DNA of 25,597 bases from a virus (IMGVR_UViG_3300035208_001055:120494-146090), one strand, 5' to 3'. Positions 8,651-25,597 are shown, numbered from the stretch's first letter. Notes: generated by a model not told the origin, from the letters alone. Translations and numbers: made by a program.

Positions 8651-8660
8651 CTCAACACTC

Positions 8661-8915: not shown

Positions 8916-8928
8916 CACTACTGCTCCA

Positions 8929-8963: not shown

Positions 8964-8964
8964 G

Positions 8965-10621: not shown

Positions 10622-10839
10622 CGCTTCACCCGCTCCCACAACAGAGAAGGTGGGACCCAGATGACTGAAGAGTCACCAGCCACCGGCATCACTTCAACAG
10701 CGCTCCTTTGTGCCGTGAGATCGGTGACTTCGACCAACACGTAGACACTAAACGAATGGTTGCCATCGGCGGGCATCATCTTCAGATAGAGGATGTCGCC
10801 AATATGCAGGTCAGACTTGTTGCGTTTGTACTCGATCAT
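10618..10839 (-). CDS. Small KOW/SH3-like protein
   Basis: LHIGDILYLK...VEVTD...VWVPPSLL. Confidence 0.65.
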   Translation of the reverse strand: MIEYKRNKSDLHIGDILYLKMMPADGNHSFSVYVLVEVTDLTAQRSAVEVMPVAGDSSVIWVPPSLLWERVKR

Positions 10840-10854
10840 CCCGTCACTTACCTG

Positions 10855-11043
10855 TTACTTATGGCGCGAGATGCGTTTCAGCGTGTCAGCGATGAAGTTT
10901 GCCGTCTCGCGGTCGTGGCAAGAATTAAACCACACGCACCGCACGGGCCTCGTGCAATTTGTTTCGATCTCTTCAACCGTCATATCCGGGCCACCTGACT
11001 TCAACCTCACAATGTCGCCAATCCTAAACTGTCCATCTGTCAT
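10855..11043 (-). CDS. YodC/DUF2158-family small protein
   Basis: FRIGDIVRLKSGGPDMTV...VRCVWF signature. Confidence 0.85.
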   Translation of the reverse strand: MTDGQFRIGDIVRLKSGGPDMTVEEIETNCTRPVRCVWFNSCHDRETANFIADTLKRISRHK

Positions 11044-11047
11044 CGGT

Positions 11048-11266
11048 TCACCTCAACGGTTCAATTACAAAGTGACACAACCCAGCCGTAACTAAGGCTC
11101 GAAGCGAAGTCGAACATCCCTCACCGTCCCAAAGTTTACGGCTACACTCGCCACACAAACAGAGAACATTGTGCGGACGGCCTGCCTCATACGCAGCGTA
11201 CAAACCATACGTGATCTTTCGATCAGCCTTACGCACACTCCCCGGTAGACACATCTCGCACTGCAT
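11048..11266 (-). CDS. Small Zn-binding hypothetical protein
   Basis: Start moved to MQCEMC (GGAGG SD); CEMC...CGEC. Confidence 0.65.
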   Translation of the reverse strand: MQCEMCLPGSVRKADRKITYGLYAAYEAGRPHNVLCLCGECSRKLWDGEGCSTSLRALVTAGLCHFVIEPLR

Positions 11267-11630
11267 AGGTGTCCTCCACTCGGTTCGTCTCTTCAAGTAT
11301 AGCATCAATTCCTGAAAAGTCAACCCCAGTGCGACGGATTTCTTCGTTTTTCTGTGGGTTCCACGGGAAACACTCGCAAACAGGGCACCACAACTCGTCC
11401 TTGTGAGCGTCAAAGAAGCTGGTCGTCAGCCGCGCATCCCGACAATCCGGTGCGACCTCTTCAACCCGCGTCTTGAGATAGTTCGGTCCACCTATTCCCC
11501 GTTCCAACAATGGAAACGGATGCTTGCACTCTCGGTGCAGCATTCGATTCACTTCGCGGTGGTATTGCACCTCCGTGAGTCCCGGCGTCCTCTGTCGTAC
11601 TTCAAAGTATGTGCGGAAAAAGTCAAGCAT
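11229..11630 (-). CDS. Hypothetical protein
   Basis: 133-aa ORF in operon orientation; CPVC motif. Confidence 0.65.
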   Translation of the reverse strand: MLDFFRTYFEVRQRTPGLTEVQYHREVNRMLHRECKHPFPLLERGIGGPNYLKTRVEEVAPDCRDARLTTSFFDAHKDELWCPVCECFPWNPQKNEEIRRTGVDFSGIDAILEETNRVEDTYAVRDVSTGECA

Positions 11631-11632
11631 GA

Positions 11633-12013
11633 TTAGTCCTCACTCTTGAACTCGTGAATATAGCGATACAATCGCTTGTAAAGTCGATGCCATTTATTGG
11701 TTGGATCGTGCCATGCAACAACATACTTCAAGTCGTGCCCGCACTTCACCCAAAGCCACCGCATAAATGACCGAAACAACCAGACCTTAAACCGTATTCG
11801 CAGCCAAACAAACTGACGCCAGCGATACCCGAGATACCAGGACCACGTATTGAATCCGTGCTTATGTATCCCGCACTTCGCGCATGGCGGATTGTCGCCG
11901 TAGTAGAATTGCCCAGTGCGCCCATACCACTTCTCCGAATCAGTCCAATCCGATTGATCCAAGTAGCGGTGGCCAAAAATAAGGCACCATTCTAATCGTC
12001 GATACCTCACCAT
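11633..12013 (-). CDS. Hypothetical Trp/Arg-rich protein
   Basis: Start moved to MVRYRR (GGAG SD, overlaps upstream stop); WCLIFGH...CAKCG. Confidence 0.6.
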   Translation of the reverse strand: MVRYRRLEWCLIFGHRYLDQSDWTDSEKWYGRTGQFYYGDNPPCAKCGIHKHGFNTWSWYLGYRWRQFVWLRIRFKVWLFRSFMRWLWVKCGHDLKYVVAWHDPTNKWHRLYKRLYRYIHEFKSED

Positions 12014-12153
12014 ATAAGCACTCTCCACACATTTCCACACTTCGGACATTGATATACGTTGGCGAGATAAGCCCCGGCCTTAATAGACTTTGGTTTGCAA
12101 TCTGCTTCCTTCATCTGTTGCTTGCACTTGGGGCAAGTCACAAGACGTACCAT
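12007..12153 (-). CDS. Zn-ribbon mini-protein (48 aa)
   Basis: Manual: MVRLVTCPKCKQQMKEADCKPKSIKAGAYLANVYQCPKCGNVWRVLIW; paired CPKC. Confidence 0.7.
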   Translation of the reverse strand: MVRLVTCPKCKQQMKEADCKPKSIKAGAYLANVYQCPKCGNVWRVLIW

Positions 12154-12174
12154 AATCAAATCCTCTCGACCAAA

Positions 12175-12756
12175 TCAAAGATGTGCTGAGTTCATGGCGT
12201 CAGCTTTGTTTTTCAAATCTCGACGCGCTGCTACCCGTCGTTCTCGCTCTATCGCCGCCCGAGTCTGAATCCGTTTTTTCTCCGCGATGAATTGGTCTCG
12301 TATCGCCGTCAACGCTTCGTCACTCAAGTTGCAGAACCAAGAGGAGCTAACGGGAAAGACGTAAGAGTAATTGCCGTTGTTGTCAATGTAGCATGTGTCG
12401 GGTGAAACCCCGATTTCGATACCGTCAATGCACAAGGTTGCGACGACTTCAGAATGTGTCCCCAGATCGGCACCGAATATGTAACTGGTGCCTCGCGGGT
12501 CGCGGAAACTGATCGACAGGCGATTATTATGATCCTTCGGTTCCGGCGTCTTTGGATTCGCCAGCGACAACAGGCGGCGTCGAGTCGATTCCCACGGCTC
12601 ATTCGCAACACCGTGTCCGTTGTCTCGTCCATCGAGAATCTGGTTTATCAATTGACAAAGTGAAGCAACAGCTTGATCGCTCCCCCGCCAGTACGCCGGA
12701 TGAGCGAATGGTGTGCCATCTAACTCAACATCGTCAGCCGGTTTGTCCGTCGCCAT
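12175..12756 (-). CDS. Hypothetical protein
   Basis: Start moved to MATDK; C-terminal coiled-coil-like basic helix. Confidence 0.65.
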   Translation of the reverse strand: MATDKPADDVELDGTPFAHPAYWRGSDQAVASLCQLINQILDGRDNGHGVANEPWESTRRRLLSLANPKTPEPKDHNNRLSISFRDPRGTSYIFGADLGTHSEVVATLCIDGIEIGVSPDTCYIDNNGNYSYVFPVSSSWFCNLSDEALTAIRDQFIAEKKRIQTRAAIERERRVAARRDLKNKADAMNSAHL

Positions 12757-13087
12757 AAAGCCACCTGTGGTCAAAGTTGTCAGCCGCCATCTCCGGCGTA
12801 TCACCCGTTGCGCTCACGTCACCACACGCCGCGACCCACTGCCCGGTCCCGACATCAAAAGTCATTGAAGCCTGCACCATGCGAAACGGACGTTGATACT
12901 CGCGGCTCTGTTCAATCCATCGTTTCTTCGCATCCCGCTCAAGTTCAGCGGCTTCACGCCGCGCTATGGCCTCCAAGACCTGTTGCTGGCCAACCGCCTC
13001 AGCCGTCAGACATTCCGACTCCGCTTTCCGTTTGTAGGACTCGGACATCTGAATCTGCATGTCTTCAATTCGTTCCTGATGTGTCAT
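12734..13087 (-). CDS. Coiled-coil + HicB-like C-terminal domain protein
   Basis: WVAACGDVSATGDTPEMAADNF resembles the HicB N-terminal signature (G.T.EEA..N); start moved to MTHQ. Confidence 0.55.
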   Translation of the reverse strand: MTHQERIEDMQIQMSESYKRKAESECLTAEAVGQQQVLEAIARREAAELERDAKKRWIEQSREYQRPFRMVQASMTFDVGTGQWVAACGDVSATGDTPEMAADNFDHRWLYGDGQTG

Positions 13088-13088
13088 A

Positions 13089-13463
13089 TCAACGTGGCTG
13101 CGCTTGTGGCGCTGTCCCTCCGAGAAGTTGTAGGTTCGTAAGCATCGTTGCAAACTGGGAAAGTCGCACGGCGTGTTTGTCAATCAACTCATTCCGAGTA
13201 AATTCGTTCCCGACCAACTCTTCCGACTTGCTAACAATCTCCTCAGTGAGGTCTGTGAGCCACTGATTGTAGACCTTATTCAGTGTCTCGGCCGCTTCTC
13301 GGCAAGACCGGGCGAGAAACGGATTCGCCTTCTGCCACTGTGCAGCCGCGCTCGGTTGTGAGTCAGTTGTTCCAGTTACGTGCCGATGTATAGACCGTAT
13401 TAACTCAAGCTGCTGCGTCTGCAATGTCAAGAAGTTCTGTGCCAATTGTTCAAAGGATGCCAT
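13089..13463 (-). CDS. Helical hypothetical protein resembling a conserved Planctomycete protein
   Basis: WQKANPFLARSCREAAETL...GNEFTRNELIDK; resemblance recalled, not searched. Confidence 0.65.
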   Translation of the reverse strand: MASFEQLAQNFLTLQTQQLELIRSIHRHVTGTTDSQPSAAAQWQKANPFLARSCREAAETLNKVYNQWLTDLTEEIVSKSEELVGNEFTRNELIDKHAVRLSQFATMLTNLQLLGGTAPQAQPR

Positions 13464-13477
13464 TCTAATCGTCCTCG

Positions 13478-13756
13478 CTAATTGAAATCACTAGGATCGA
13501 CAGCGTGCATGTGCTCACACGTGCATTCGTCGTTCAAATTAAACAATGCTCGACGGACAGAACCTTCATGTTGTCCCCAAATCGGGCCAACTACGCAACC
13601 TGTCTCAAGACACTCTGCAAAGACGCAGGGTACTTCCTTTCCAAAGTCGCCAACTTCCTCGGTGTAAATGATCTTCGCAAGCGGCTTCTTTGGAGTGCTC
13701 TCTACGTCCCCGAACAAATAGTCCATCATCTCCTCGGCCGTCATGTCGTCGTTCAT
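13478..13756 (-). CDS. Acidic Cys-containing hypothetical protein
   Basis: Start moved to MNDD (GGAGG SD). Confidence 0.7.
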   Translation of the reverse strand: MNDDMTAEEMMDYLFGDVESTPKKPLAKIIYTEEVGDFGKEVPCVFAECLETGCVVGPIWGQHEGSVRRALFNLNDECTCEHMHAVDPSDFN

Positions 13757-13760
13757 GCTA

Positions 13761-13958
13761 CTACCTCCGAGCAATTTCCGTGCCATCATCCTCAACATAC
13801 TCGTGCTCTTTGCACCACTCGCAGAGTTCGTCGATCACTTCCAACGCGATCTCACCGAGACTCACTGCGGCAAGAGACAACAAGGCAAGCGTTATCCAAA
13901 CCGGACAGCCACACAGCCACAAGCGCCACCGCCACGGGTTCTTGAGTTGGAATTTCAT
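13761..13958 (-). CDS. Small membrane protein
   Basis: Start moved to MKFQL (ATGA overlap, GGAGG SD); hydrophobic segment VWITLALLSLAAVSL. Confidence 0.65.
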   Translation of the reverse strand: MKFQLKNPWRWRLWLCGCPVWITLALLSLAAVSLGEIALEVIDELCEWCKEHEYVEDDGTEIARR

Positions 13959-14302
13959 ACGGCCTCCCTCTCTTGGGTGTTCACTTTTGGCAACGCCACG
14001 TTGCCGTCTGTTGCATCGTTTACACGCGGTTCCAGACCGAGTTCCACCAGCAGCCTCACCAACACGTCCCCGTGGCACGCCAGGGGCTTGCAGTGGCACC
14101 CCAGACGCTTGCCAACGAGTTGCGGCAGAGCGGCCAGGAGTTCAGGCGACTGCCGCACATGCGCCTCGTACAACGCAATAGCCTTCTCACGAGTGATCCT
14201 CTGGTATGGGTCGATGTGGTGCGGATTGCCCCAGATTGAGCCTCGACCGATGTAAACATCGAATCCACCAGGGTCACGAACATTTACGACGATTGTTTCC
14301 AC
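13955..14302 (-). CDS. DUF4326 domain protein
   Basis: DVYIGRGSIWGNP...REKAIALYE...LVGKRLGCHCKPLACHGDVL. Confidence 0.9.
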   Translation of the reverse strand: METIVVNVRDPGGFDVYIGRGSIWGNPHHIDPYQRITREKAIALYEAHVRQSPELLAALPQLVGKRLGCHCKPLACHGDVLVRLLVELGLEPRVNDATDGNVALPKVNTQEREAV

Positions 14303-14711
14303 GTCCCCTCCCGAGTTCCCGCTTGATCTTCCGCTTCAACTCCTTGAAAATGAGGCCAGAGACCAAACACAACATCTCCTCAAAGTCACGTTTGAGCCAA
14401 CGGGATTTATTGTCATACTTCCGCAGGTAGTCGGCTATCGACCACGCCATGTGAATTGACTCGTGCAGCAACGTCTCATCCCGAAGAAAATCTTCAGAAA
14501 ATAAAACACAGCCGAGCCACTGTGTATTTTTCTGTGGTTTATAGGCTATCACGCAGGCTTTAGACTGGCCCTTACTGTTACCTCTGAAGTTCCCTAATTT
14601 CAAACGATATAACTCGCCACGACGTTGCTGTCGATGATTCTTAAAGACAACAACGTCCCACCGAAAATTCTCGCCAGACCGGCCCAATCCGATGTTAAAC
14701 TTTATTGCCAC
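14274..14711 (-). CDS. Zincin-like metallopeptidase (HExxH) #1 of tandem trio
   Basis: LLHESIH ... FEEMLC (third-ligand Glu candidate). Confidence 0.7.
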   Translation of the reverse strand: MAIKFNIGLGRSGENFRWDVVVFKNHRQQRRGELYRLKLGNFRGNSKGQSKACVIAYKPQKNTQWLGCVLFSEDFLRDETLLHESIHMAWSIADYLRKYDNKSRWLKRDFEEMLCLVSGLIFKELKRKIKRELGRGRGNNRRKCS

Positions 14712-14722
14712 GATGTTACCCG

Positions 14723-15136
14723 TCAGTCATTTTGATATTTCTCGTGAAAATCATCTCTAAACTTCCGAGCCAACGAATAGGCACGTCGTTCCACGTTTCG
14801 GTGCCCAGGAGACTTCTTATCGCGGTACTGTTCGTAGTGACAAAACTCGTGCATTATTGTGACAATAAATTCATCGAGTCGTTGTTGAAACGTGAGTCCG
14901 CGAAACTTCTTGTGAAAATGTTGAACAAGAATGATGCAATGAACCGGAACAAAATAACCTACCTGATCGTCGTGTCCATTCCACAGTACGCTTCCGGGTT
15001 GTTCCTTTGTCACAAAAATAAGGAGATTATGTTTGATCTTCTGGGTGTCACGTAACCATTTGCCAACAGCAATCGCAAATCCGTGGTATGTCGGATCGAC
15101 GCCGGGCTGAAACCGTGCTTCGACAACCTTTCTCAC
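14723..15136 (-). CDS. Zincin-like metallopeptidase (HExxH) #2 of tandem trio
   Basis: GYF...TIMHEFCHYEQ...VERRAY. Confidence 0.7.
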   Translation of the reverse strand: MRKVVEARFQPGVDPTYHGFAIAVGKWLRDTQKIKHNLLIFVTKEQPGSVLWNGHDDQVGYFVPVHCIILVQHFHKKFRGLTFQQRLDEFIVTIMHEFCHYEQYRDKKSPGHRNVERRAYSLARKFRDDFHEKYQND

Positions 15137-15158
15137 CTCGTGAATCTCTCCGACTTCA

Positions 15159-15545
15159 TCATGTTAGACCCCTACAATAGAAGATCAACTCCTGCAAAGT
15201 TTTACCGACAGCCCACGCCAGCATCTCCTCGTCCTTTGACTTTCGTATCCGTTTCACGTAGTGGACGGCCGCGTGAGTTGCCTCGTGTGCCAGTATTTCG
15301 TAGTCAATGTGTTCCATCGAAAGCAAAATATACCCGAGAAAAGGATCGGTTGAACGCTTCCCTTTGTCAAATCGTTCAATCTGACGGGGCATCACAATAG
15401 CAGCAAAATCACACCGCTCTTTCCCTTCTGAGCGGCGTTTATAGCCATTGTACATCTTCAGGTGTGATGGATACACTATCACTTTATAGTAGCGATATTG
15501 CTTACCACGGACACCGCCTGGATACACACGAAAAGACACTGCCAT
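15159..15545 (-). CDS. Zincin-like metallopeptidase (HExxH) #3 of tandem trio
   Basis: ILAHEATH...DEEMLAW; aligns with #1. Confidence 0.7.
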   Translation of the reverse strand: MAVSFRVYPGGVRGKQYRYYKVIVYPSHLKMYNGYKRRSEGKERCDFAAIVMPRQIERFDKGKRSTDPFLGYILLSMEHIDYEILAHEATHAAVHYVKRIRKSKDEEMLAWAVGKTLQELIFYCRGLT

Positions 15546-16132
15546 TAACGTGCTCTCTCCTGCGCCCGTTCCCGATGAACTGCCTCAAGGCGATTGAACT
15601 TCTTGACCACCCCGCCGAACCCGAGTCCCCACCAGTCAACGACCGGCCACGTCCAACTCATAGGCGCACCGTCCGGCCGGTGACTCCCGTATTCCAACAC
15701 GCGGAAGTCATGCCACGCACCGGGGCGCAACTTAGCGGAGAGAAAACTCCGCACGTACTTGGAGGCCGTGGACAGCCAGATTGTCTTCGGTATCTCGAAA
15801 TGCCGGGCCACGGCTGAATCTAATTCCAACTCGTAGCTACTGGCGATATATCGCTCACCGTTCGACCGTGTTGGAGTGTAGGTCGCCGTCTTTATCACGG
15901 TCTCTTCCGTGTTGCCCGTGAACCGTGCCTCGAAGTGCGGGCCAAGATTGAAGTCTCGCTTCCCCTCGGGAACCATGTAGACCAACACGTAGTTCCCGTA
16001 GTTTGGATCACCCTGCCGGGTGACGAGCCGCAATGTCGGCCGGGTCATGGCGCTCTCGGGCGTCCCGTACTTCAACTCAATGTGGTTGCACCGGTCAAAC
16101 AACTCGTTCTGTGTCTCTTCGATCTGTCCCAC
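15545..16132 (-). CDS. Hypothetical protein
   Basis: 195-aa ORF, GTG start with GAGGTG SD, stop coupled to the next start. Confidence 0.7.
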   Translation of the reverse strand: MGQIEETQNELFDRCNHIELKYGTPESAMTRPTLRLVTRQGDPNYGNYVLVYMVPEGKRDFNLGPHFEARFTGNTEETVIKTATYTPTRSNGERYIASSYELELDSAVARHFEIPKTIWLSTASKYVRSFLSAKLRPGAWHDFRVLEYGSHRPDGAPMSWTWPVVDWWGLGFGGVVKKFNRLEAVHRERAQERAR

Positions 16133-16146
16133 GGTTCACCTCTCAA

Positions 16147-16356
16147 TCAACATCTTTGGCTGTGTGTTCGCACTGTTGAACGCGAAGGTCCCACCGGCTC
16201 CAAACCGAAGGTCTTGGCGATCTTGTTTCCGACCTCTATCTCGTCCTGTATCAGGTATCCCCTGCCGAAAAAGCACATCAGGAACCTATGGATCGTTCTC
16301 GCCTCATCCTCACTGAGGATCATAATAGGCGAGCCATCTATGTCGGTGCTGGGCAT
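16147..16356 (-). CDS. Hypothetical protein
   Basis: Start moved to MPSTD (AGGAG SD). Confidence 0.6.
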   Translation of the reverse strand: MPSTDIDGSPIMILSEDEARTIHRFLMCFFGRGYLIQDEIEVGNKIAKTFGLEPVGPSRSTVRTHSQRC

Positions 16357-16364
16357 GTCGGCTC

Positions 16365-16550
16365 CTATTGTATTTCCTTGTTGATCTTGCGTATCAAAAA
16401 GGTGACTGCTTCCATGTTCCACTCGTCGGGTGTCCCTTCCAGCAGAAACACCTCCATGATCTCCTCTCGCATCCACTGTGGTAGTGTCTCAGCGTGCCGG
16501 TGCCACATCAGTTGCAACTTCGTCATCGCCTGTTGTCGTTTCGACATCAT
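16365..16550 (-). CDS. Hypothetical protein
   Basis: GGAG SD, helical 61 aa. Confidence 0.65.
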   Translation of the reverse strand: MMSKRQQAMTKLQLMWHRHAETLPQWMREEIMEVFLLEGTPDEWNMEAVTFLIRKINKEIQ

Positions 16551-16580
16551 TGGTCTCCTAACTTTCTCCCAACCTTCTCC

Positions 16581-16772
16581 TCAAATGGAAAGGATCACCA
16601 CGTGGCCGGTTTTACGTCTCATGTTCGTCCTCAATTGTACGGCGAGACATCCCACGTCGATGATCGTATTCCAATCCCCGGCGTCTACTTCAATAAACAC
16701 ATCGAGTTCCAGCAGGTCGGGGTCTGTTTTGACAGCCCGATTCAGTTTCTCTACAAAGTCGGCCAACTTCAT
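16581..16772 (-). CDS. Hypothetical protein, first gene of the leftward run
   Basis: Start moved to MKLADF (GAGGAG SD). Confidence 0.65.
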   Translation of the reverse strand: MKLADFVEKLNRAVKTDPDLLELDVFIEVDAGDWNTIIDVGCLAVQLRTNMRRKTGHVVILSI

Positions 16773-16900
16773 TGCTCTCTCCTCTGCTTTATCTCCTACC
16801 CGCGAGGTGCGGTGTATCAACATCCCACGACACAATCCCCGCAGTGTTTACCCACAGTCGCCCTCGGAACACTATCGGAATCACCCGCGAGATGCGTTGT

Positions 16901-16929
16901 ATCGTAAACGTAAGGTCCTATGCTGTCAA
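16901..16929 (-). promoter_or_regulatory. sigma70-type promoter for the leftward arm
   Basis: TTGACA (16929-16924), 17-nt spacer, TACGAT (16906-16901). Confidence 0.75.
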
Positions 16930-17255
16930 GGGTTACGGACATGATTCTATGCGTATTGTACTCTTGCGCCTCGCGGGTGCGTCACCTAACCCCAGTCAGC
17001 GAGCCAAGTTCCGTCAAAACACGTGTTCTTTCGTGTGTAACACTGGCACCCTTAACTCACGTGCCTGCTTAGTGTTACGGCCAACGGAAACTGTTTCTAT
17101 ACAAACCTGGCTTATTACCTATATTGTTTTTATTTAGCCCTATTTGATTTACTATAGGGGATAATCAGACTATGTATACAAACGCTCCCTGGGAGTCGTA
17201 AGTTCGTATGCAGTCACGTGTTAAGTGCTGCGTTTTACTCCCAGACATGACATGA

Positions 17256-18152
17256 CTAATTTACACGTCTTGACGCAACTCCTTGTGTCACAACGTCTTC
17301 AGTGGGATAAACTAGCCCCAACGCACTGAGTTTCCGATCATACAGCGCCCAGAACGCCGGGTCCCCTGTTGAGCGGTCATTTGGGTCGCGGATGGGGATG
17401 TCGTGTTCTTTCATCAACTTGCGGTCCTCGCGGGACCAGCGGAGGCGAAAGGCTTTTCGTGCGGGCGGGGCGTTTGGATAGCGGGTGCCGTTTAATAGAA
17501 CGCCCTCCCGCCCCGTGGCCCGTGTGAATTTCCCTGATTGTCCAAGTTGTGAGCGATACTCTTGGGCTTTTTTTCGGGCCTCTACCCGGTCGAAAATGTT
17601 GTCCTCTAAGATTTGCAGGATAGGTTCACGACCACTTTTGTAGATGTCGGTGAGCCATTGTTGGTATGGAGTAATTGGCTCTAGTTTCCCTTCGTGTTGT
17701 TTAATGCGGTTCCACTGTCGAAGGGCAGATCGCTTGTAGCCGTAGCCAATATAACCTATTGACTGTGTGTGGGTATCTGTTAGCTTAAAGACACATAGTG
17801 CCGGGTCATAGAGTGACCGCTTAGGAGGTTGCCTACGGGAGCTTGTGGGGCCTGTGCAGTCAATTCCAGTGGACTTTGTATCTCGGATCAACTCGTGGAC
17901 CTTCAACTTCGCCTCTTCCTCACTGAGATTCGTGTAGAGAACTTCGATGAAAGGTTCCATCTTCATTGAGATAAGAGCCTGTTGACAGACCTCTACTGGA
18001 TCGTTCCAGTCGGGTTTCTTTAGATGGAGTTTGCTGGCATTCCATCTGCGAGCATGTCGTCCCGAGAAGCAGTAGTCGATATAGTACGGGTCGTGGCTTC
18101 TACGCGGATCGAGATACCAGAACACGTCGTAGGTTTTTTGCTTTCGCGCCAT
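17256..18152 (-). CDS. Protein with two tandem, degenerate GIY-YIG-like domains
   Basis: Domain 1 YDVFWYLDPR..DPYYIDY...EVLYTNLSEEEAKLKVHELI; domain 2 CVFKLTD...IGYIGYG...QILEDNIFDRVEARKKAQEY. Confidence 0.65.
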   Translation of the reverse strand: MARKQKTYDVFWYLDPRRSHDPYYIDYCFSGRHARRWNASKLHLKKPDWNDPVEVCQQALISMKMEPFIEVLYTNLSEEEAKLKVHELIRDTKSTGIDCTGPTSSRRQPPKRSLYDPALCVFKLTDTHTQSIGYIGYGYKRSALRQWNRIKQHEGKLEPITPYQQWLTDIYKSGREPILQILEDNIFDRVEARKKAQEYRSQLGQSGKFTRATGREGVLLNGTRYPNAPPARKAFRLRWSREDRKLMKEHDIPIRDPNDRSTGDPAFWALYDRKLSALGLVYPTEDVVTQGVASRRVN

Positions 18153-18407
18153 CGGTTGGCCTCCTATCTTATCTAACGGCAGAACCGGGGGACATTTCCA
18201 CCTAAATCTTGAAAATTCTCTGGATTTCTCCGTGACGCGGCAGAGTCCCTGGATTCGGCCAGAAATCCGCGACCGGCTCCCGTGCGCCCTGTGTTACCGA
18301 TCAAAAACGTTTACACGCAATTGACCCCGCCGTCGAGTTGGAGATCAGCGTCAGGGGAGCACCCCCACTGACGGGGGAGGCGGGATACCGTCAAGCGGGG
18401 CACAATT

Positions 18408-18431
18408 GACCCTCCCCTCCCCCGGAGGGTC
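18408..18431. repeat. GC-rich inverted repeat at the compositional boundary
   Basis: GACCCTCC-8nt-GGAGGGTC; CAATTGACCC direct repeat at 18318 and 18403. Confidence 0.7.
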
Positions 18432-18641
18432 GGCCGGAGGGTTGCCACCCCCTTATAAGCCCATTTATTCGCTATAATCAGCACATTTTGCATTAGTTGC
18501 GCTTGCATTGTTGCCCAACAATGGGGCGCAACCCGCTAGGCGCGTGGATAGAGGGCGGGGCAGGGGGCAGCATAGGGGCTATGACGTAAGGTGTTATGGT
18601 TGTAGCAGTTACGACGACTGCCTACTTTATAGGCATTGTGC

Positions 18642-19197
18642 GACTGCCAAATTGGCAGTCTCAAGCGGCGACCGGAAAATCGTTAAAAATGGCGCAACCG
18701 CGCGCGTCGTTTCGGGTAGCCAGTAGAGGGGATTAGTCACTAATCTAGTGAACATTGCTTACGTCATACATTCGCTACATAAGTCATTACCCGCGAGGTA
18801 CTTAGAACTATAACCATTGCCATAACCATCATAGATTACAGCCCTATCATGCCATAGTTTAGTCATTTAGTAATCATTAGTTTTGCTTATGCTATCCCGA
18901 CACAAGATAAGGGACGATGATACACACGGACTATTCGTTACTGCCTACTTATTGAGCATGACCCTAAAGGTAGGGATAGGCAGCATAGACCTAACTACTA
19001 GCATAGTCAGTAGTTACGCTCTATTGCATACTGCCTACTTATTGAGCATATCCGTTAGCACTAGCAAGGGAGGGAGGGCGATAGTAGACTGCCATAATGG
19101 CAGTTAGAAACACCCCTCTATCTGTAGGGTAGACTGCCATAATGGCAGTCGATAAGCGTTAAACTGCCATTATGGCAGTCGTAACCTGATAGAGGGG
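18642..19197. repeat. Array of 19-bp palindromes GACTGCCA-N3-TGGCAGTC (4 copies) with nested inverted and direct repeats
   Basis: Copies at 18642-18660, 19087-19105, 19132-19150 and 19162-19180; CCCCTCTATC/GATAGAGGGG inverted repeat encloses copies 3-4; TACTGCCTACTTATTGAGCAT at 18939 and 19029. Confidence 0.9.
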
Positions 19198-19361
19198 CTT
19201 CTATTTTCGGTTCGCCTTGCGGGGCAAGTAGAGGGCAGGGTATTCTAGGCCGATTGCCACCTTAGAACGCAAGGGGCGCAAAGCTAGACCTATCGTGATT
19301 ATCGGGGTTGTAGCGATTAGGTAAGTTAGGCAAGATGCGCCTATTGATAGCCTACCATTTG

Positions 19362-19485
19362 CTTGCACAATACCATTTCGGGTGGTATCGTGCAAGAGCG
19401 GGGTGCATATCGGACCACGGGCAGGGCGCGCAATGGGAAGCGCAAAGGGAACCACCCGCTAGTGTGGATACACTAACGGGTGGTT
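19362..19485 (-). ncRNA. Candidate structured RNA segment: two long hairpins
   Basis: 14-bp stem (19362-19396) and 16-bp stem (19450-19485); each has one internal pair that is C-A on plus but G-U on minus. Confidence 0.4.
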
Positions 19486-19555
19486 AAGGGAGGGGCAATC
19501 CCTACTGAATGAATTGTGCTGATTGTAGCGATTGTGCCGATTAGTTAGGCTTGGA

Positions 19556-19753
19556 TTAGGCTTGCAATCCACGGGCCGTCATTTCCCCTAGAATCGCTAC
19601 AATCGTCGTGGCCATTGTGGGCCATACAAACCGCAATGTCCGCAAGTCTATCCCAAACGACATACCCCCATTTAAGCGCTCTTCCATGCGCTTCCAGACT
19701 TGTCGGTACAATCGGCATAACTGGCCATCCGTCAATCTTGACAGACTCGGCAT
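19556..19753 (-). CDS. Hypothetical protein (65 aa), lone leftward gene in the CAG-depleted region
   Basis: MPSLSRLTDGQLCRLYRQVW...; GGAGGT SD; own promoter upstream. Confidence 0.7.
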   Translation of the reverse strand: MPSLSRLTDGQLCRLYRQVWKRMEERLNGGMSFGIDLRTLRFVWPTMATTIVAILGEMTARGLQA

Positions 19754-19797
19754 AATCGTTACCTCCGTTGTTGTCGTTGCAATCGCATTGTTCGTCA

Positions 19798-19991
19798 CCA
19801 CCCCGCCCGTGGTCAATTCCGGGCGGGGTGGGCAGGGATGTACTATCCCCGTGGTATTCCAGAACATACCCACCTATCGGCCATTATCCGATGGCGTGTT
19901 TTCCATGCGCCTATTAGTGGATATGCCCGGTTTCCTCTTGACCCCTCTTGTATCGTTGCCCCGCCCCCTACTGACACAATAGGGGGCGGGG
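19798..19991. repeat. Two perfect 12-bp GC-rich inverted repeats in the leader of the leftward transcript
   Basis: CCACCCCGCCCG-10nt-CGGGCGGGGTGG (19798-19831); CCCCGCCCCCTA-9nt-TAGGGGGCGGGG (19959-19991). Confidence 0.85.
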
Positions 19992-20065
19992 GCTTTTCAC
20001 TAGGGCAGGGGTGCTACCTCTTCGCCAACTAGGCGGGGGTTGCCCTCTTCTGCCCGAACTATTCA

Positions 20066-20093
20066 AGCATACCACGGATTTGGGCGGGGTCAA
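20066..20093 (-). promoter_or_regulatory. sigma70-type promoter with extended -10
   Basis: TTGACC, 16-nt spacer, TGn-TATGCT. Confidence 0.6.
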
Positions 20094-20370
20094 GCAAAAT
20101 TCACGGCGCGCCGTCAGAAAGTAGAATCGGCGCGCCGGAATAATCGGAACTATGCACCACCCGCGAGGCGCAAATATACAATACACAAGAGGTTATGTCA
20201 TTTTATGGTGGAGGTTAGCGGCCGTTATCTTAGCTCTTGCTTAGGTAGGGTTGCGACGATTGTTCAAGATGCAACGATAATTAGTGTCACGCGGGTGGTT
20301 GCAGACGGAATATGCCGATTGTAGGGTTGTGGTAAACCACGCTATCCTAGAAAGATTTTGGGATTTCCAT

Positions 20371-20398
20371 TTGACAAGCTACGGGATAGAGCTAGATT
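20371..20398 (+). promoter_or_regulatory. sigma70-type early promoter PR1
   Basis: TTGACA-N16-TAGATT, followed by AAGTAGAAG and a strong SD. Confidence 0.7.
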
Positions 20399-20423
20399 TC
20401 AAGTAGAAGAGGAGGGGAGAACA

Positions 20424-20579
20424 ATGGAAGGGATGATAACCAAAAAAGACTTGTTTTTTCACCCGCTCTTGATTATCGGGCTTTTCGGGTTGCGGGTTTA
20501 CTTGCGGGGTTGTGCGGCCGGTTTGATCGGCCGGAAAACTACTTTCCTTGCAATCGCATTTGACACTAGGAGGGCTTGA
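20424..20579 (+). CDS. Small hydrophobic protein (51 aa)
   Basis: Start moved to MEGMIT (GAGGAGG SD, downstream of PR1). Confidence 0.65.
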   Translation: MEGMITKKDLFFHPLLIIGLFGLRVYLRGCAAGLIGRKTTFLAIAFDTRRA

Positions 20580-20581
20580 CA

Positions 20582-21116
20582 ATGGCGACGTTAGACATAC
20601 ACCCATTTGAGAAGCGCGGGCTAGGGGTTGCCCCCTTCCGGTTTGTTGGAATGTCCGAAAAAGTCTACTGCGCTTGTCCGGGCGCGCCAGAGCAACCGGG
20701 CGGGTGTTGCGATTTTTGCGGCAACGGGATTAGGTATTGCTTCCATATCCATAGCGCCGACGGGAAAGATTTTATTGTCGGTTGTGAATGCGTCAAGCGG
20801 ACGGATAAGGCTTGCCTAGTGAATGCTACGGAATTTGATAGGGCTGTTGCGGCACACAAGCGCAAACTAGCGGCCGACCGGCGCGCCGTTGTGGTTGCGC
20901 GTGAAGAGAAGAGAATCGGGGAAGCGCTTGCCCTCTATCCTACGGTTAGGGATGAAATGGCGAAACAGCCCCACCCCGCAAGCTAAACCGGGCGGATGGT
21001 TTGATGGTAAGACTCTTGCCGATTATGTCGATTGGATGATTGTACGGGCAGGGCATAGCGGCCGGTTGCAGATAGCCCGCAAAATCGAACAATTCACGGG
21101 GAAAAGGGAGGGCTAG
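20582..21116 (+). CDS. Cys-rich Zn-binding phage protein, split by a +1 frameshift near 20975
   Basis: HPFEKRGLGVAPFRF...GGCCDFCG...VGCEC...PHP ends at TAA 20986; +1 frame continues PQAKPGGWFDGKTLADYVDWM to TAG 21116 with no SD/start of its own. Confidence 0.65.
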
Positions 21117-21120
21117 AGCT

Positions 21121-21327
21121 ATGGCAAAGTTACCGCAATTCGAGATATGCGACCACCCCACAAGCGCGAACCATTGCCTAGTGAAAGCGCGCTATCGGGG
21201 GCGGGTGTATGCCATATCATGGGCTTTGCCGATTTCAAGCCCGGATATAGAAGAGGTCAAGCGGATTTGGTTGGAAGAGCGCGGGGCATTTCGCCCGTAT
21301 GATGAAAGTGGGGCGCGGTATCTGTAG
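21121..21327 (+). CDS. Hypothetical early protein
   Basis: AAGGGAGGG SD; 68 aa. Confidence 0.75.
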   Translation: MAKLPQFEICDHPTSANHCLVKARYRGRVYAISWALPISSPDIEEVKRIWLEERGAFRPYDESGARYL

Positions 21328-21375
21328 GGTATCTGTAGGGACCGACAAGGGGACCGACAAGGGAGGGCTAGGGCT

Positions 21376-21957
21376 ATGGCAACGGACACAACGAAAACGG
21401 CAGAAGGGGAAAGCATAGAGTGGGAGAATCGGACTACCTGCCCGGATTCTCTTCTAGTGCCGATATTCCGCCATTGTGCGGATTGTGTAGGGGTCGATTT
21501 GGCCCCTTGTGAAAGCTACCCCGATAGATTGCGGGTTAAGGTTACAAGGGGCAGGGCGCGCAATGGGCGCATATCGGGGCTTGCAAGCGCTTGGAGTAAC
21601 CACGGGCCATTTGAGTGTAAAGTGGTGTTGCCCCGCGCTTGCGGGTGGGATGTATTGGATTTGGTAAGGGAGTTTTGGCGGGTTGCAATCCACGAAATGG
21701 CCCATATTCTCGATTATCAGAATCGGGCGCGTGGTTACAAGGTAGACTTTAATAGCTACTCTAGCCCCTATTCCATGCGCAGAATCCGCCATGATGATAG
21801 ACCACAAGAGAAGCGCGCCGACGATACGGTCAAGCGCGTGGAAGCGCAGATAAGCGCGGGGGCTTTGCCCTCTTGTGAAAGCGCGCTAGTCGATTTGGCC
21901 GTTTGGCTAGAATCGGAAAAACTGGATCGACCGTTAAATCGCACAATCGTTGCCTAA
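21376..21957 (+). CDS. Zincin-like (HExxH) protein
   Basis: VAIHEMAHILDYQ...QEKRAD; AAGGGAGGG SD. Confidence 0.7.
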   Translation: MATDTTKTAEGESIEWENRTTCPDSLLVPIFRHCADCVGVDLAPCESYPDRLRVKVTRGRARNGRISGLASAWSNHGPFECKVVLPRACGWDVLDLVREFWRVAIHEMAHILDYQNRARGYKVDFNSYSSPYSMRRIRHDDRPQEKRADDTVKRVEAQISAGALPSCESALVDLAVWLESEKLDRPLNRTIVA

Positions 21958-21999
21958 CTATTCACAACCCCTTCTTCACTCACAATTAGGAATTTCAGA

Positions 22000-22260
22000 A
22001 TGATCGACACAATTGAAAGAATCGAGCAACCCGAAACGGTCGATATGACCGTTGCAAACAGCCTACCCAATGGTGCGCAGATACTCCGCCGACATAATGC
22101 GGGAATGGGGCGTTATGTCGTCCTATGCGTATGGCGTGGGGCGCAACCCTACGTTACATGGGCAACGGACAATCAGGGGCGCGCCTATTGGGGCCACTAC
22201 TTCACAAGGTTGGATTGTGCCGAAAATGACTATTGCAAGAGGGTAGAGCGGGGATTCTAG
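22000..22260 (+). CDS. Conserved small phage protein (YVTW...YWGHYF motif)
   Basis: Motif recalled from phage/MGE hypothetical proteins; AGGA SD. Confidence 0.7.
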   Translation: MIDTIERIEQPETVDMTVANSLPNGAQILRRHNAGMGRYVVLCVWRGAQPYVTWATDNQGRAYWGHYFTRLDCAENDYCKRVERGF

Positions 22261-22291
22261 GGAAAATCTTTCCATTTTGCTTGACAACAAT

Positions 22292-22319
22292 TTGACAATC
22301 GGCGGGGGCGAAGTAAGGT
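22292..22319 (+). promoter_or_regulatory. sigma70-type early promoter PR2
   Basis: TTGACA-N16-TAAGGT followed by AAGTAGAAG; second TTGACA at 22281. Confidence 0.7.
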
Positions 22320-22344
22320 TAAGTAGAAGGGAAGGGAAAACGCC

Positions 22345-22458
22345 ATGAAAACGAAAAAGCAAATTTTCCGAGTGAAAACCCCGCGCGGCCTAGTGCAAGT
22401 TACCGTAGCGCGGGACGTTTCGGGGGTTGTGGTCTATCGGCTATACCATCGGGTGTAG
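22345..22458 (+). CDS. Basic mini-protein (37 aa)
   Basis: Manual: MKTKKQIFRVKTPRGLVQVTVARDVSGVVVYRLYHRV; purine-rich SD directly after PR2. Confidence 0.6.
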   Translation: MKTKKQIFRVKTPRGLVQVTVARDVSGVVVYRLYHRV

Positions 22459-22511
22459 GCAACGGACCACGGACCACGGGCAGGGCAACCGAACAAAGGG
22501 AGGGCTATCAA

Positions 22512-22682
22512 ATGGCAATCCGACACAATGGCGCGCTAGTGGCGGAAAACGTCCGTCAATTCGACGTTATCCCCGCCATATTGGGCTTGCCACAATCGGG
22601 GCTTTTCCAAGTGGAAATCTTGCCCCTTGTGGTTGTGGCGACATACCGCAAGGAAAACGGGGAATTGACAAGGGAGGGCTAG
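22512..22682 (+). CDS. Mini-protein (56 aa)
   Basis: Manual: MAIRHNGALVAENVRQFDVIPAILGLPQSGLFQVEILPLVVVATYRKENGELTREG; AAGGGAGGG SD. Confidence 0.65.
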   Translation: MAIRHNGALVAENVRQFDVIPAILGLPQSGLFQVEILPLVVVATYRKENGELTREG

Positions 22683-22685
22683 GCT

Positions 22686-22976
22686 ATGGTAAATGCGAAA
22701 GTGGCCGTTATCGTGAAACTGCGCGGCCTTATCCACAATACGGAAACCTTGCTAGGGCAACCCCGTATATGGGCGCAATCGCCCCTTGCGTACAATGCGC
22801 GGCGTTTGCTGATTGCCCAATTGCACTATGGGGAACAAACCCTAGCTTGTGCGGAAGAGGGCGGGGATTATTCCGCCCTCTACAATGAGCTAGACATAAC
22901 GGTTAGGGCAGGGGTTGCGGCGTTAGGCATGTTGCGCGCCGCTTGGCCAGAAATCCAACATAGAGGGGGAGTGTAA
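22686..22976 (+). CDS. Hypothetical early protein
   Basis: AAGGGAGGG SD; TAATG coupling to the next gene. Confidence 0.7.
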   Translation: MVNAKVAVIVKLRGLIHNTETLLGQPRIWAQSPLAYNARRLLIAQLHYGEQTLACAEEGGDYSALYNELDITVRAGVAALGMLRAAWPEIQHRGGV

Positions 22977-23548
22977 TGGCAAGTGAAAACGAAAACCGGA
23001 TAACGGAAACCCTCACGGCCGACGGGTGGGGCTTGCATATCGTTTGCAAGGATAGCGGGGGCTATGATCGGCAAAGCAAATGGAAAGCTACCCTAACGCG
23101 CAACGGGGTAAGCTATGCCGTTACGTTTCGGCAAGGTAGCGGGTTGCGGGTTTGGAAAAAGGGGCCGTTAGGGTGCTATGCGCCAGTAGGCGCGGAGTAT
23201 TGGGCGCATTATCGGCAACCGGGGAAGCGCGTTAGCTCTTTTCTCCCCCGGTTGCGCGCCGCAAAGGATTGCGCTTGCCCCGATTCGCAACGGCGCATTA
23301 TCGACGCATTTGACGGGCTAACCACTCCCGAAACCCCTACCCTTGCCGATATTCTGTATTGTATCGTTTCTGACGTTTCATCCGTCCGTTACGGTCAAGA
23401 CTTTTCGGCATGGTGTAGCGAATTTGGCGAAAATGTCGATTCTCGCAAAGCCCATAGGGTTTACAAGGCTTGCGTGAAAGAGTGGCGGGGGCTTGTCCGA
23501 TTAGGGGCGGATTTCGACCGGCTGGAAGCGCTCTTCCAAGATTTCTAG
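22976..23548 (+). CDS. Hypothetical early protein
   Basis: 190-aa ORF; C-terminal LADILYCIVSD...FSAWCSEFG...DSRKA resembles recurrent phage hypotheticals. Confidence 0.75.
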   Translation: MASENENRITETLTADGWGLHIVCKDSGGYDRQSKWKATLTRNGVSYAVTFRQGSGLRVWKKGPLGCYAPVGAEYWAHYRQPGKRVSSFLPRLRAAKDCACPDSQRRIIDAFDGLTTPETPTLADILYCIVSDVSSVRYGQDFSAWCSEFGENVDSRKAHRVYKACVKEWRGLVRLGADFDRLEALFQDF

Positions 23549-23580
23549 GCAACGGACCACAAGGGACACAAGGGGCCACA

Positions 23581-23979
23581 ATGGCGACACAACAAACGAT
23601 AGGCGCGCTTGATAGTTTCACCCTAGCTTATCTGGAATGCGCCTTATGGGCGGAAGAGGATAGGCTAGAAACGGAATTAGGGATGGTTCCCCAAATATCG
23701 GACATTGCCCCGCATTGCCTAGCCGACATTGCGGAACAATGCCAGAATTTCCAATTCGATAACCGGGCGGATTTGGACGGGGCAAATTATCCCTTGCACC
23801 CGTCCTATGGCCCTACCGAAATGGCGGGGCATGATTTCTATCTAACGCGCAACCATCATGGGGCGGGTTATTGGGATAGGGGCTTAGGCGCAATCGGGGA
23901 CCGATTGACCGACAAGGCGCATGAGTGGGGCGAATCGTCCCCCTATGTCGGGGACGACAAGCGGATTTACTTTTCCTAA
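23581..23979 (+). CDS. Conserved phage protein (GHDF-LTRN-HG-G-WDR motif)
   Basis: AGHDFYLTRNHHGAGYWDRG...YVGDDKRIY; start moved to MATQQ. Confidence 0.8.
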   Translation: MATQQTIGALDSFTLAYLECALWAEEDRLETELGMVPQISDIAPHCLADIAEQCQNFQFDNRADLDGANYPLHPSYGPTEMAGHDFYLTRNHHGAGYWDRGLGAIGDRLTDKAHEWGESSPYVGDDKRIYFS

Positions 23980-24011
23980 CGACAATGCCAACAATGGCGG
24001 AGGTAACGACA

Positions 24012-24371
24012 ATGACGACGGCAACGAAAAAAGTGGTACTAGGGGATTTCACGGTCGAATACTTGGGTTGTGAATACCCCGACTATTTTCAAGGATACGG
24101 GGTAGCTTTTTCCCGTTACGACAATTGCGCCTATGGTATCGGTGACACCATAGCTGAGGCGCTTGACGATTGTATCGAAATGTTCGCGCAATCGTCTGAT
24201 ATTGATTGTACGGAAGAGGTGGAAGCAAGGATTCGCGCAGACTTTGGCGAATATGACGCCGATGCAACGGTTTCCGATGTACTCGGAATTGACGAAAATG
24301 AGGACAACGACGGTTGTGGGGAAAGCGCCTACTTCCATGTTGGTATCAAATGGAACGAAATCGCCGAATAG
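24012..24371 (+). CDS. Highly acidic small protein (DNA-mimic candidate)
   Basis: Start moved to MTTAT (GGAGGT SD); hand count 28 D/E vs 6 K/R in 119 aa. Confidence 0.7.
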   Translation: MTTATKKVVLGDFTVEYLGCEYPDYFQGYGVAFSRYDNCAYGIGDTIAEALDDCIEMFAQSSDIDCTEEVEARIRADFGEYDADATVSDVLGIDENEDNDGCGESAYFHVGIKWNEIAE

Positions 24372-24420
24372 TTCGGCGGTAGTGAGTAGGCAACGGGAAA
24401 CAATTGGGAGGGTCATAACG

Positions 24421-24609
24421 ATGGTAGTGAGAATAGAGTTTGATACCGACAATGACGCATTTGTCGGTCGGCGCAAAGACGAGATTTGTAAGGTACTGCG
24501 CGATTGTATCAAAGGTGTCAAAGAGGGGAAACATAACAGGGATGGCGAATTTTCCTTACGTGACACTAACGGCAATCGTATCGGTTTTTTGATCTACACC
24601 GACAAGTAG
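24421..24609 (+). CDS. Conserved small phage protein (TDNxAF...DxNGNxxG motif)
   Basis: EFDTDNDAF...EICKVLR...LRDTNGNRIG; GGAGG SD. Confidence 0.75.
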   Translation: MVVRIEFDTDNDAFVGRRKDEICKVLRDCIKGVKEGKHNRDGEFSLRDTNGNRIGFLIYTDK

Positions 24610-24624
24610 GGAAGGGAGGGTTGT

Positions 24625-24987
24625 ATGCGACGTATCAAGATTTCCTATCAAACCGTTACACCCGAATCGGCCGAAGATGGCGATTATGCCGATCATGGGT
24701 GGATTGACGAGGATGGCGTTTGTATCGAACCTGACGATTGCGACGTAGAAGATTACGGTAGCGAATCTGACGCCGTTATCGCTCTTGCCGCGAAAACCAT
24801 TCGTGACGATTGTGGCGGAGTTGAGGCGAGTGATTATCCTAAGTGTTATCCGGGTCATACGTGGTATACCCAGATTGACGCCGACAAGGATTATTCTGAT
24901 GGTAGCGAAACCACCCGCTCTTACCATCTTGACGGATTTTCCGTTAGTGAAGAGTTGGGGATTTATGCCGAGTTGACCGGCAGATAG
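24625..24987 (+). CDS. Highly acidic small protein (DNA-mimic candidate)
   Basis: VTPESAEDGD motif; hand count 29 D/E vs 9 K/R in 120 aa; AAGGGAGGG SD. Confidence 0.75.
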   Translation: MRRIKISYQTVTPESAEDGDYADHGWIDEDGVCIEPDDCDVEDYGSESDAVIALAAKTIRDDCGGVEASDYPKCYPGHTWYTQIDADKDYSDGSETTRSYHLDGFSVSEELGIYAELTGR

Positions 24988-24997
24988 GGTTGCAACG

Positions 24998-25210
24998 ATG
25001 GTAGTGGCAAGGTGGGAAAGTAGCGGTGGTAAACATTGGGCCGAGTTGCACGATAATGGGGACGGTAGTTTCTCTTATCGTGGCAACGGTTGCGGGGGCT
25101 TTATGGGCGCAATGTCCCAAGCGCTTGCGATTGCCGAACTAGAGCGCAAAGTAGGGGATGGATACTTTCTGCCGGATGTAGCGAAAACTCCAATGAAAAG
25201 GGTCAAGTAG
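24998..25210 (+). CDS. Hypothetical early protein
   Basis: Tiles between neighbouring genes; 70 aa. Confidence 0.65.
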   Translation: MVVARWESSGGKHWAELHDNGDGSFSYRGNGCGGFMGAMSQALAIAELERKVGDGYFLPDVAKTPMKRVK

Positions 25211-25211
25211 T

Positions 25212-25532
25212 ATGGCAAAGGTTGAAACGGTTGAAACGGTTGCGACAATCAAGCGGAAAGCGCCTACTCGTGAGGCATTTGCTGGTTGTAGCACAAATGG
25301 TGTGAGTGTCGATTATTACGAAACTAAGGGTCATGCCGTTAGCGCGTTCAATGCCGTATTGGAACGTGATAACCTTTGTTTCGATCTTGACGATTGCGGG
25401 GAAATGGACGGCGATAGCGGCCGTAAGACAATCCCCGTTATTGACGAATACCACAATTGTGTGGCATTTGCCTATCTTTCGTGGTATCGTATGCCTAGCG
25501 GCCGTTACGAGGTAACGGGCTATCTTGGATAG
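25212..25532 (+). CDS. Conserved phage protein (LSWYRMPSGRYE motif)
   Basis: C-terminal LSWYRMPSGRYEVTGY recalled from phage hypotheticals. Confidence 0.75.
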   Translation: MAKVETVETVATIKRKAPTREAFAGCSTNGVSVDYYETKGHAVSAFNAVLERDNLCFDLDDCGEMDGDSGRKTIPVIDEYHNCVAFAYLSWYRMPSGRYEVTGYLG

Positions 25533-25541
25533 ACCACGGGC

Positions 25542-25597
25542 GCAACGGCGGGGCAACGGCGGGGCAACGGCGGGGCAACGGCGGGGCAACGGCGGGG
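25542..25597. repeat. 11-bp tandem repeat (GCAACGGCGGG) x5+, runs off window
   Basis: Five perfect units 25542-25596. Confidence 0.95.

Follow-up and report, generated by a model that had tools for sequence, protein, structure and literature searches.

The DNA analysed here (IMGVR_UViG_3300035208_001055:120494-146090) makes up the final 25.6 kb of a virus record of 146,090 bp rated complete by CheckV, corresponding to record positions 120,494-146,090, and this whole stretch of 25,597 nucleotides is referred to as the window. Within it lies part of a region that is poor in the trinucleotides CAG and CTG (jointly written as CWG); this CWG-poor region is referred to as the block, and the remaining genome as the backbone or rest. 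Coordinates are given as either window or record positions. The genome encodes a large terminase, a portal, a major head protein, a 1,239-residue tape-measure protein, a DNA polymerase and a primase, together with a tmRNA and eight tRNAs that include a tRNA-Gln(UUG). The left 18 kb of the window holds DNA-metabolism genes on the minus strand (a topoisomerase, an AAA ATPase, a serine recombinase and an FkbM methyltransferase), followed by an untranslated region and then by the block, which in the window is plus-strand coding by both codon score and GC skew. The window part of the block reads as follows.

Window 19210-25597, plus strand: small open reading frames with 8.7 CWG/kb, no CCWGG and many CTAG.

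Over its full length the block carried 10.2 CWG/kb versus 26.7/kb elsewhere in the genome. CAG/CTG was its most depleted trinucleotide relative to the rest (170 observed versus 444 expected, log2 -1.38), and also its most under-represented one when codons were controlled for (z = -11.4). The hand counts of CAG plus CTG in a first-pass annotation of the window were exact (3 in window 20341-20940, 4 in 22981-23580 and 19 in 9001-9600), as was its report that CCWGG disappears (18 copies in window 1-18479 versus 0 in 18480-25597), and the opposite contrast that it had drawn for CTAG is real (13 versus 37 copies in the same two intervals). However, that annotation had set the switch at window ~18.4-18.5 kb, which is wrong: window 18,480-19,250 still contains 27 CWG/kb, and a maximum-likelihood two-state change point (log-likelihood ratio 106, support range 150 bp) located the left edge of the block at about window 19,210-19,360, to the right of the strand switch at window ~18.2-18.5 kb. 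Neither does the feature end with the window, as had been supposed, because the depletion runs on for 10.8 kb at the other end of the record (positions 1-10,825). The block therefore measures ~17 kb and comprises ~40 small plus-strand genes, nearly all of them CWG-poor, and it wraps around the record from 139,750 over 146,090 and 1 to 10,825. Its right edge was placed at record ~10,660 by a maximum-likelihood two-state fit, and per-gene counts set it at the junction of overlapping genes at record 10,825, with 8.5 CWG/kb before and 27/kb after. The run of plus-strand genes itself reaches record ~15.5 kb, ~4.7 kb past the purge, and no direct repeats flanking both edges of the block were found.

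The depletion is independent of coding. With the block proteins recoded according to the codon usage outside the block, 347 ± 14.5 CWG would be expected in the block genes versus the 134 present, and permutation of synonymous codons within the block revealed a similar deficit of off-frame CWG (81 versus 227 ± 11.5), while such permutation yielded no deficit off-frame in the rest of the genome (1482 versus 1517 ± 26). CWG was two- to fourfold lower in every one of the three frames, and the block spacers carried 11.7 CWG/kb. The deficit survives both recoding and permutation, so that amino-acid composition does not account for it and the earlier assertion that it is not simple codon choice was borne out. 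The same goes for the joint loss of the triplet and its complement (equal off-frame z-values on the coding strand, -8.5 for CAG and -8.6 for CTG) and for the shift of leucine and glutamine codons to TTG, CTA and CAA, which is also present off-frame. On the coding strand, the words that arise from CWG by one transition were correspondingly raised (CAA +8.1, TTG +8.3, CTA +3.8, TAG +2.1). A strand-symmetric depletion implies a reader of duplex DNA, and argues against a reader at the RNA level, against translation and against transcription-linked, strand-biased damage. The data thus point to a cause that acts on duplex DNA.

This bears directly on the idea of translational tuning, according to which an early codon set would be matched to host tRNAs before the phage tRNAs are made. 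Although codon usage in the block differs for many amino acids and the phage tRNAs include tRNA-Gln(UUG), the depletion is equally strong off-frame and in spacers, and we give this idea next to no credence. Host-tuned codons were rejected, as the block is less host-like in codon usage than the backbone (r = 0.80 versus 0.90). In a separate observation on the tRNA complement, the tmRNA (tag peptide AKPSFAMAA; record 34,221-34,576) was found to adjoin tRNA-Glu, with the seven other tRNAs lying elsewhere.

The purged words were examined in their flanking context. Among CWG contexts, CCWGG was absent (0 versus 20.8 expected), and ACAGG (1 versus 14.6), ACWGT (4 versus 23.6) and GCWGC (6 versus 22.6) were strongly reduced, while TCWGA (14 versus 15) and CCAGC (20 versus 24.7) were spared. 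Depletion was consequently heterogeneous across flanks (chi-square 55, P = 1.6e-6), even though 13 of the 16 contexts were at least halved and CWG lay inside 8 of the 11 most purged 5-mers. Words without CWG were purged as well (GAGCC/GGCTC 0 versus 24, AGTCA 3 versus 38, GATC 27 versus 64), and CAGTC also ranked among the short words purged from the block. Counted as 5-base quasi-palindromes, CCWGG was observed 0 times versus 36.5 expected, CTSAG 2 versus 34, CASTG 4 versus 34, GASTC 6 versus 34, ACWGT 6 versus 30 and GCWGC 9 versus 36.5; in the rest of the genome these same words stood at 0.5-1.1 of expectation.

These counts are not fully accounted for by a pure 3-base site, nor by a handful of independent 5-mers. 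The first-pass annotation had left the choice between one unusually short motif and a stack of defence systems; in view of the context heterogeneity, the former part fits less well than the latter, in the form of stacked targets that have a CWG core in common. Both such a stack and one context-sensitive reader are possible. The latter, a single duplex reader with a three-base CWG core modulated by its flanks, which would act on incoming DNA and belong to either the Planctomycetota or the phage family, seems unlikely to us. A literature search returned nothing relevant on a bacterial methylase or restriction enzyme specific for CWG.

The same counts speak to a purely mutational origin, in which CWG would have decayed by C-to-T transitions (through methyl-cytosine deamination or transcription-linked damage) without selection on words. 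Consistent with such decay, the words that rise are its one-transition products (CAA/TTG z = +12.4, CTA/TAG +3.6), the most enriched 4-mers are GCAA, CAAG, ACAA and CAAT with their complements, and CTAG goes up as CCAG/CTGG go down. However, the pattern is strand-symmetric, unlike transcription-linked damage; it depends strongly on context, with TCWGA untouched versus CCWGG gone; GATC, GAGCC and AACGTT are purged too, which does not fit CWG decay; and the edges are sharp, one lying within ~150 bp and the other at a gene junction. Moreover, a methylase acting on phage DNA would hit the whole genome, and neither a C5-cytosine nor a Dam-type (D12 class) methyltransferase was found in this one, so that a phage C5-methylase was rejected as the driver. 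We therefore regard a mutational origin as very unlikely. Two CcrM-like N6/N4 DNA methyltransferases are encoded outside the block on the minus strand (record 77,166-77,780 and 40,794-41,426).

The first-pass annotation had read the depletion as restriction avoidance, and the genome as a whole is plainly shaped by this. Out of 64 six-base palindromes, 39 are absent from all 146 kb, with ~30-35 copies of each expected, and the overall observed/expected ratio (O/E) of 0.26 is uniform along the genome; mirror repeats, taken as a control, were normal (2175 versus 1999). This genome is under extreme restriction pressure. The avoidance of six-base palindromes recurs in weaker form in relatives (O/E 0.33-0.72) and in Planctomycetota chromosomal DNA (0.41) but not in T5 (0.80), and the palindrome loss far exceeds that of the T5 control, in which 4 are absent in 61 kb. 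Backbone and block are free of the same ~40 hexamer palindromes, and the block is additionally devoid of CACGTG, AACGTT, ACCGGT and ACATGT, for which 16 sites were expected from the backbone density and none seen. The genome-wide palindrome avoidance of phages and bacteria resembles the present case in being a strand-symmetric under-representation beyond codon effects, but acts on the entire genome, whereas here a second, local tier takes shorter words from one block only. That the block is the odd one and not the backbone follows from a comparison with host-like Planctomycetota DNA, which together with the backbone shows an O/E of 0.85-0.91 for CWG, 0.16-0.21 for CTAG and 1.0-1.3 for GATC, while the block departs from both (CWG 0.31, CTAG 0.88, GATC 0.43).

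The first-pass annotation had also taken the depleted DNA for an early segment, and the depletion indeed coincides with small early genes behind predicted host-type promoters, all located in the block. The features concerned, and those next to them, are listed here.

Record 892, 2309, 4049, 5582, 7096, 8525 and 9894, plus strand: strong TTGACA-N16-TAnnnT sites (sequence match).
Window 20371-20398, plus strand: sigma-70-type promoter-like site, TTGACA-16 nt-TAGATT (sequence match).
Window 18153-19607, no strand: untranslated region of ~1.45 kb between the leftward DNA-metabolism genes and the rightward early block.
Window 18639-19181, no strand: palindrome/repeat array with four copies of a 19-bp palindrome (ACTGCC ... 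GGCAGT) and three copies of a 20-nt direct repeat.
Window 19413-19431, plus strand: block-specific intergenic element GGACCACGGGCAGGGC..., with copies also at window 22465-22490 and 25532.
Window 25537-25597, plus strand: 11-bp tandem array of 5.5 copies at the record end (Tandem Repeats Finder).

No strong TTGACA-N16-TAnnnT sites were present on plus-strand genes past record 10.8 kb. Judged from these sequence matches, the block resembles a host-takeover module that relies on the host polymerase for its transcription. The untranslated region is rich in repeats and normal in CWG content; it contained no DnaA boxes, and the window gave no Rfam match. Lying immediately upstream of the block, its palindrome/repeat array is a candidate for an operator or other site of protein binding. 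The 19-bp palindrome was not found in the relatives, and among the fetched DNA it occurred only in three loci overlapping the window region.

Further copies of GGACCACGGGCAGGGC occur in a 19-mer tandem array at record 1-110, and window ~22469-22505 matches record 15-89. The element, also given as GGACCACGGGCAGGGCAAC, precedes ribosome-binding sites and is expanded into the tandem arrays at which every assembly breaks off. This concerns both ends of the record, since the 11-bp array at its right end faces the related 19-mer tandem array (6 copies) at its left end. Logan contigs, on which the evidence for the termini is based rather than on reads, halt at window 25,571 in two runs, three assemblies break in the tandem arrays, and an 80-nt unitig links the right array to sequence like that of the left array. 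The description of the depleted DNA as a right arm at a genome end was thus an artefact of the record cut. Contig depths in run X2 (13-15.5 in the block, 16-20 outside) do not hint at a collapsed terminal repeat, though contig depth is too coarse to serve as evidence.

The block proteins are mostly orphans. Pfam gave no match for the 20 that were scanned, PHROGs returned only three families of unknown function for 10 scanned, NCBIfam added nothing, and two acidic proteins (isoelectric point 4.1) yielded no lead in Atlas. No homologues of three block proteins and an adjacent 298-aa protein were found in viral contigs. The largest block protein (319 aa, record 7174-8133) has 920 homologues but no Pfam or NCBIfam family. 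Its fold is confidently predicted (predicted local distance difference test score 92.9) to consist of two domains linked by long helices, and this model matched no named fold in PDB or AlphaFold clusters.

The phage itself is remote from cultured ones. Near-identical DNA was found in landfill and groundwater metagenomes. Neither arm was matched by megablast among 50,697 cultured phage records. The nearest cultured relatives of the large terminase are mostly Herelleviridae (~24% identity), plus a few others, and the relatives found for the terminase are fragments that cover structural regions and have a normal CWG content. Four related phage contigs of 80-139 kb (L024, the 139-kb one, L026, L027 and L029) have backbone and block genes in common with this genome at 33-72% identity. 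Each of them carries a 3-4 kb plus-strand operon with a homologue of the 319-aa protein, in which no trinucleotide is depleted more than CAG/CTG (log2 -0.78 to -0.99), while the rest of those genomes is normal. As in the block, all four operons show a surplus of CTA/TAG and ATA/TAT, and three of them also of CCC/GGG. The pooled operons were purged of the same words (GAGCC 0 versus 39, CAGTC 3 versus 29, CTSAG 5 versus 29, and O/E of 0.36 for GCWGC and 0.41 for GATC), even though the relatives have 59-61% G+C versus 51% here. The block gene at record 4245-4724 carries 8-9 CWG/kb, and its orthologues, which in two relatives lie outside the operon, carry 28-36 CWG/kb. Depletion therefore follows position in the early unit and not gene history, and given a divergence of 33-72% identity, it can persist only through selection, or a bias, that is still acting.

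These relatives also bear on a mosaic origin, in which the block would have been imported from a lineage with genome-wide CWG poverty and its composition would not yet have drifted. Phage early regions are known to be mosaic, and the block has a distinct dialect (its codon fractions correlate at 0.85 with those of the rest, with GGG, CCC, CGG and ATA preferred), a right edge at a gene junction and proteins that the Pfam, PHROG and Atlas scans left as orphans, the 319-aa family excepted. Nevertheless, relatives with both backbone and block genes have normal genomes except for a local island poor in CWG, and none with genome-wide CWG poverty was found. Synonymous sites are saturated at 33-72% identity, so that a donor signature would decay unless selected. 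The lack of the backbone's ~40 hexamer palindromes furthermore implies that the block is under the same pressure, and both the CWG poverty of nearly all its genes and the spanning of the backbone-block junction by contigs from two studies speak against a foreign insert. We therefore consider an imported block improbable.

The cellular homologues of the 319-aa protein that come closest belong to Thermoguttaceae and Planctomycetaceae (46-59% identity), followed by those of Acidobacteriota. In islands of Planctomycetota and Acidobacteriota the gene stands beside serine recombinases, and its operon is often CWG-poor. Among the Planctomycetota genome loci compared (L031-L038 and L046), the gene was CWG-poor beyond what its protein sequence demands in several islands (z -2.7 to -3.8), while others showed no depletion (L033, L036 and L037, z about 0). 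This homology suggests that the host of the phage group may be found among the Planctomycetota, which fits the landfill and groundwater samples.

The recurrence of the purged words could alternatively mean that their reader comes from the phage family itself, for example as an early host-DNA-destroying nuclease or a DNA-binding regulator, whose sites would have to be kept out of the early block, with the rest of the genome protected otherwise or arriving later. This would agree with the purging of the same words (CWG core, GAGCC, CAGTC, CTSAG and GATC) from the operons of four relatives of differing G+C, and from some Planctomycetota islands with the 319-aa gene. A precedent is T5, in which the breakdown of host DNA takes place when no more than the first-step-transfer DNA has entered the cell (10.1101/866236; T5 annotation). 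On the other hand, no nuclease was recognised among the block proteins scanned, some islands with the same gene are undepleted, ~170 CWG are left in the block, and related hosts with conserved restriction systems would explain the common word set equally well. A reader of phage origin is therefore a somewhat unlikely, though not far-fetched, explanation.

The layout resembles that of phages in which the order of DNA entry matters. Restriction sensitivity is decided by the first-step-transfer DNA in T5 and by the first-injected region in Murciavirus (PMC12455610; 10.1101/866236; T5 annotation); in T5, restriction targets in the first-step DNA count and sites elsewhere do not (10.1101/866236; PMC12455610; PMC10644984). 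Like the first-step-transfer DNA of T5 and other Tequintavirus members, the block is made up of small early genes with host-type promoters over about 10-17 kb and combines these promoters with a scarcity of restriction targets. It is bounded by an untranslated region of >1 kb full of repeats and palindromes, a setting that recalls the injection-stop region of T5. This comparison rests on sequence, and the terminal repeat and two-step entry are features of T5. There are also differences, in that no homologues of dmp, A1 or A2 were found among the block proteins scanned (20 in Pfam, 10 in PHROGs), the terminase is only ~24% like that of any cultured phage, and the untranslated region has none of the 8 DnaA boxes of the T5 injection-stop region and no sequence likeness to T5. 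The first-step DNA of T5, in turn, shows no hexamer-palindrome purge and has AGA/TCT as its own most depleted trinucleotide (log2 -1.0).

In Autographiviridae, only motifs in the leading, first-expressed region matter, a region that is variable and holds counter-defence genes (PMC12455610). T7 (class I genes with Ocr) and Murciavirus (facing the Mme2I type I system) represent the case of one long bipartite motif in a 40-kb podovirus, whereas here the avoidance concerns a three-base core and about a dozen words of 4-6 bases in a 17-kb block of a 146-kb tape-measure phage, and no Ocr-like DNA-mimic protein was recognised among the block proteins scanned.

SPO1-like phages (Herelleviridae) carry in their terminal redundancy a host-takeover module of many small orphan genes that run in one direction behind repeated strong host-type promoters. 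The block resembles this module in its small, orphan, unidirectional genes behind host-type promoters, and the terminase is nearest mostly to Herelleviridae, but at ~24% identity. To our knowledge, word avoidance confined to the host-takeover module is not a described feature of SPO1.

Taken together, we favour a two-tier avoidance of restriction words in which short words are purged only from the earliest-acting DNA, an explanation for which we hold belief and doubt to be in balance. The block would then be an early module driven by the host RNA polymerase and rewritten by selection on duplex DNA, which would have removed the CAG/CTG core in most contexts, CCWGG wholly, and in addition GAGCC, CAGTC, CASTG, CTSAG, GASTC, GATC and four extra hexamer palindromes. 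In the first tier, six-base palindromes would be few enough to be removed genome-wide. In the second, words of 4-5 bases, of which there are hundreds in 146 kb, would be purged only from the DNA that has to survive and be transcribed before the phage has disarmed host nucleases. The readers would be restriction-type nucleases of the host, probably of Planctomycetota. Because a local purge helps only if the rest is protected later, a staged or slow polar entry of the DNA, by analogy with T5, T7 and Murciavirus, is the natural way in which the block might be exposed first or alone.

Several observations weigh against this two-tier explanation. The ~170 CWG left in the block imply that cleavage at CWG per se cannot be lethal. 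The backbone strongly avoids CTAG and AGCT, as does host-like DNA (CTAG O/E ~0.2), whereas in the block these words are near or closer to expectation, so that it is not simply backbone plus more avoidance. The right edge lies exactly at an overlapping-gene junction, as a mosaic joint would, and the purging of the same words in relatives of other G+C could mean a phage-family factor instead of the host, whose identity is derived from the homologues of one protein. The record ends are an assembly break inside the block and not a demonstrated physical end. Finally, no anti-restriction protein of the A1/A2 or Ocr type or otherwise was recognised among the block proteins scanned (20 in Pfam, 10 in PHROGs, two in Atlas), leaving the first-pass claim that products of this DNA disarm host defence without support.

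As far as our searches went, none of the following has been described in the literature: a layout in two tiers, a core of three bases, an extent of 17 kb and a word set conserved among relatives. What is known, from T5 and a few podoviruses, is the local avoidance of single motifs in the DNA that acts first, while here, in a large phage of an uncultured host group, the principle would appear at full scale, with hexamer palindromes removed everywhere and 3-5-base words only from a 17-kb block. If a single CWG reader were at work after all, this would imply a defence with a very short motif or a phage host-shutoff nuclease, which phages could escape only if the small first-exposed part of their genome were rewritten. 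If the two-tier avoidance is true, it would reveal first-exposed DNA and unknown defence specificities from the sequence of uncultured phages, thereby offering a sequence-only handle on which DNA is exposed before counter-defence and on which words are read by defences or by a phage nuclease. The ~40 orphan early proteins and the widespread 319-residue protein would in that case be candidates for counter-defence functions.

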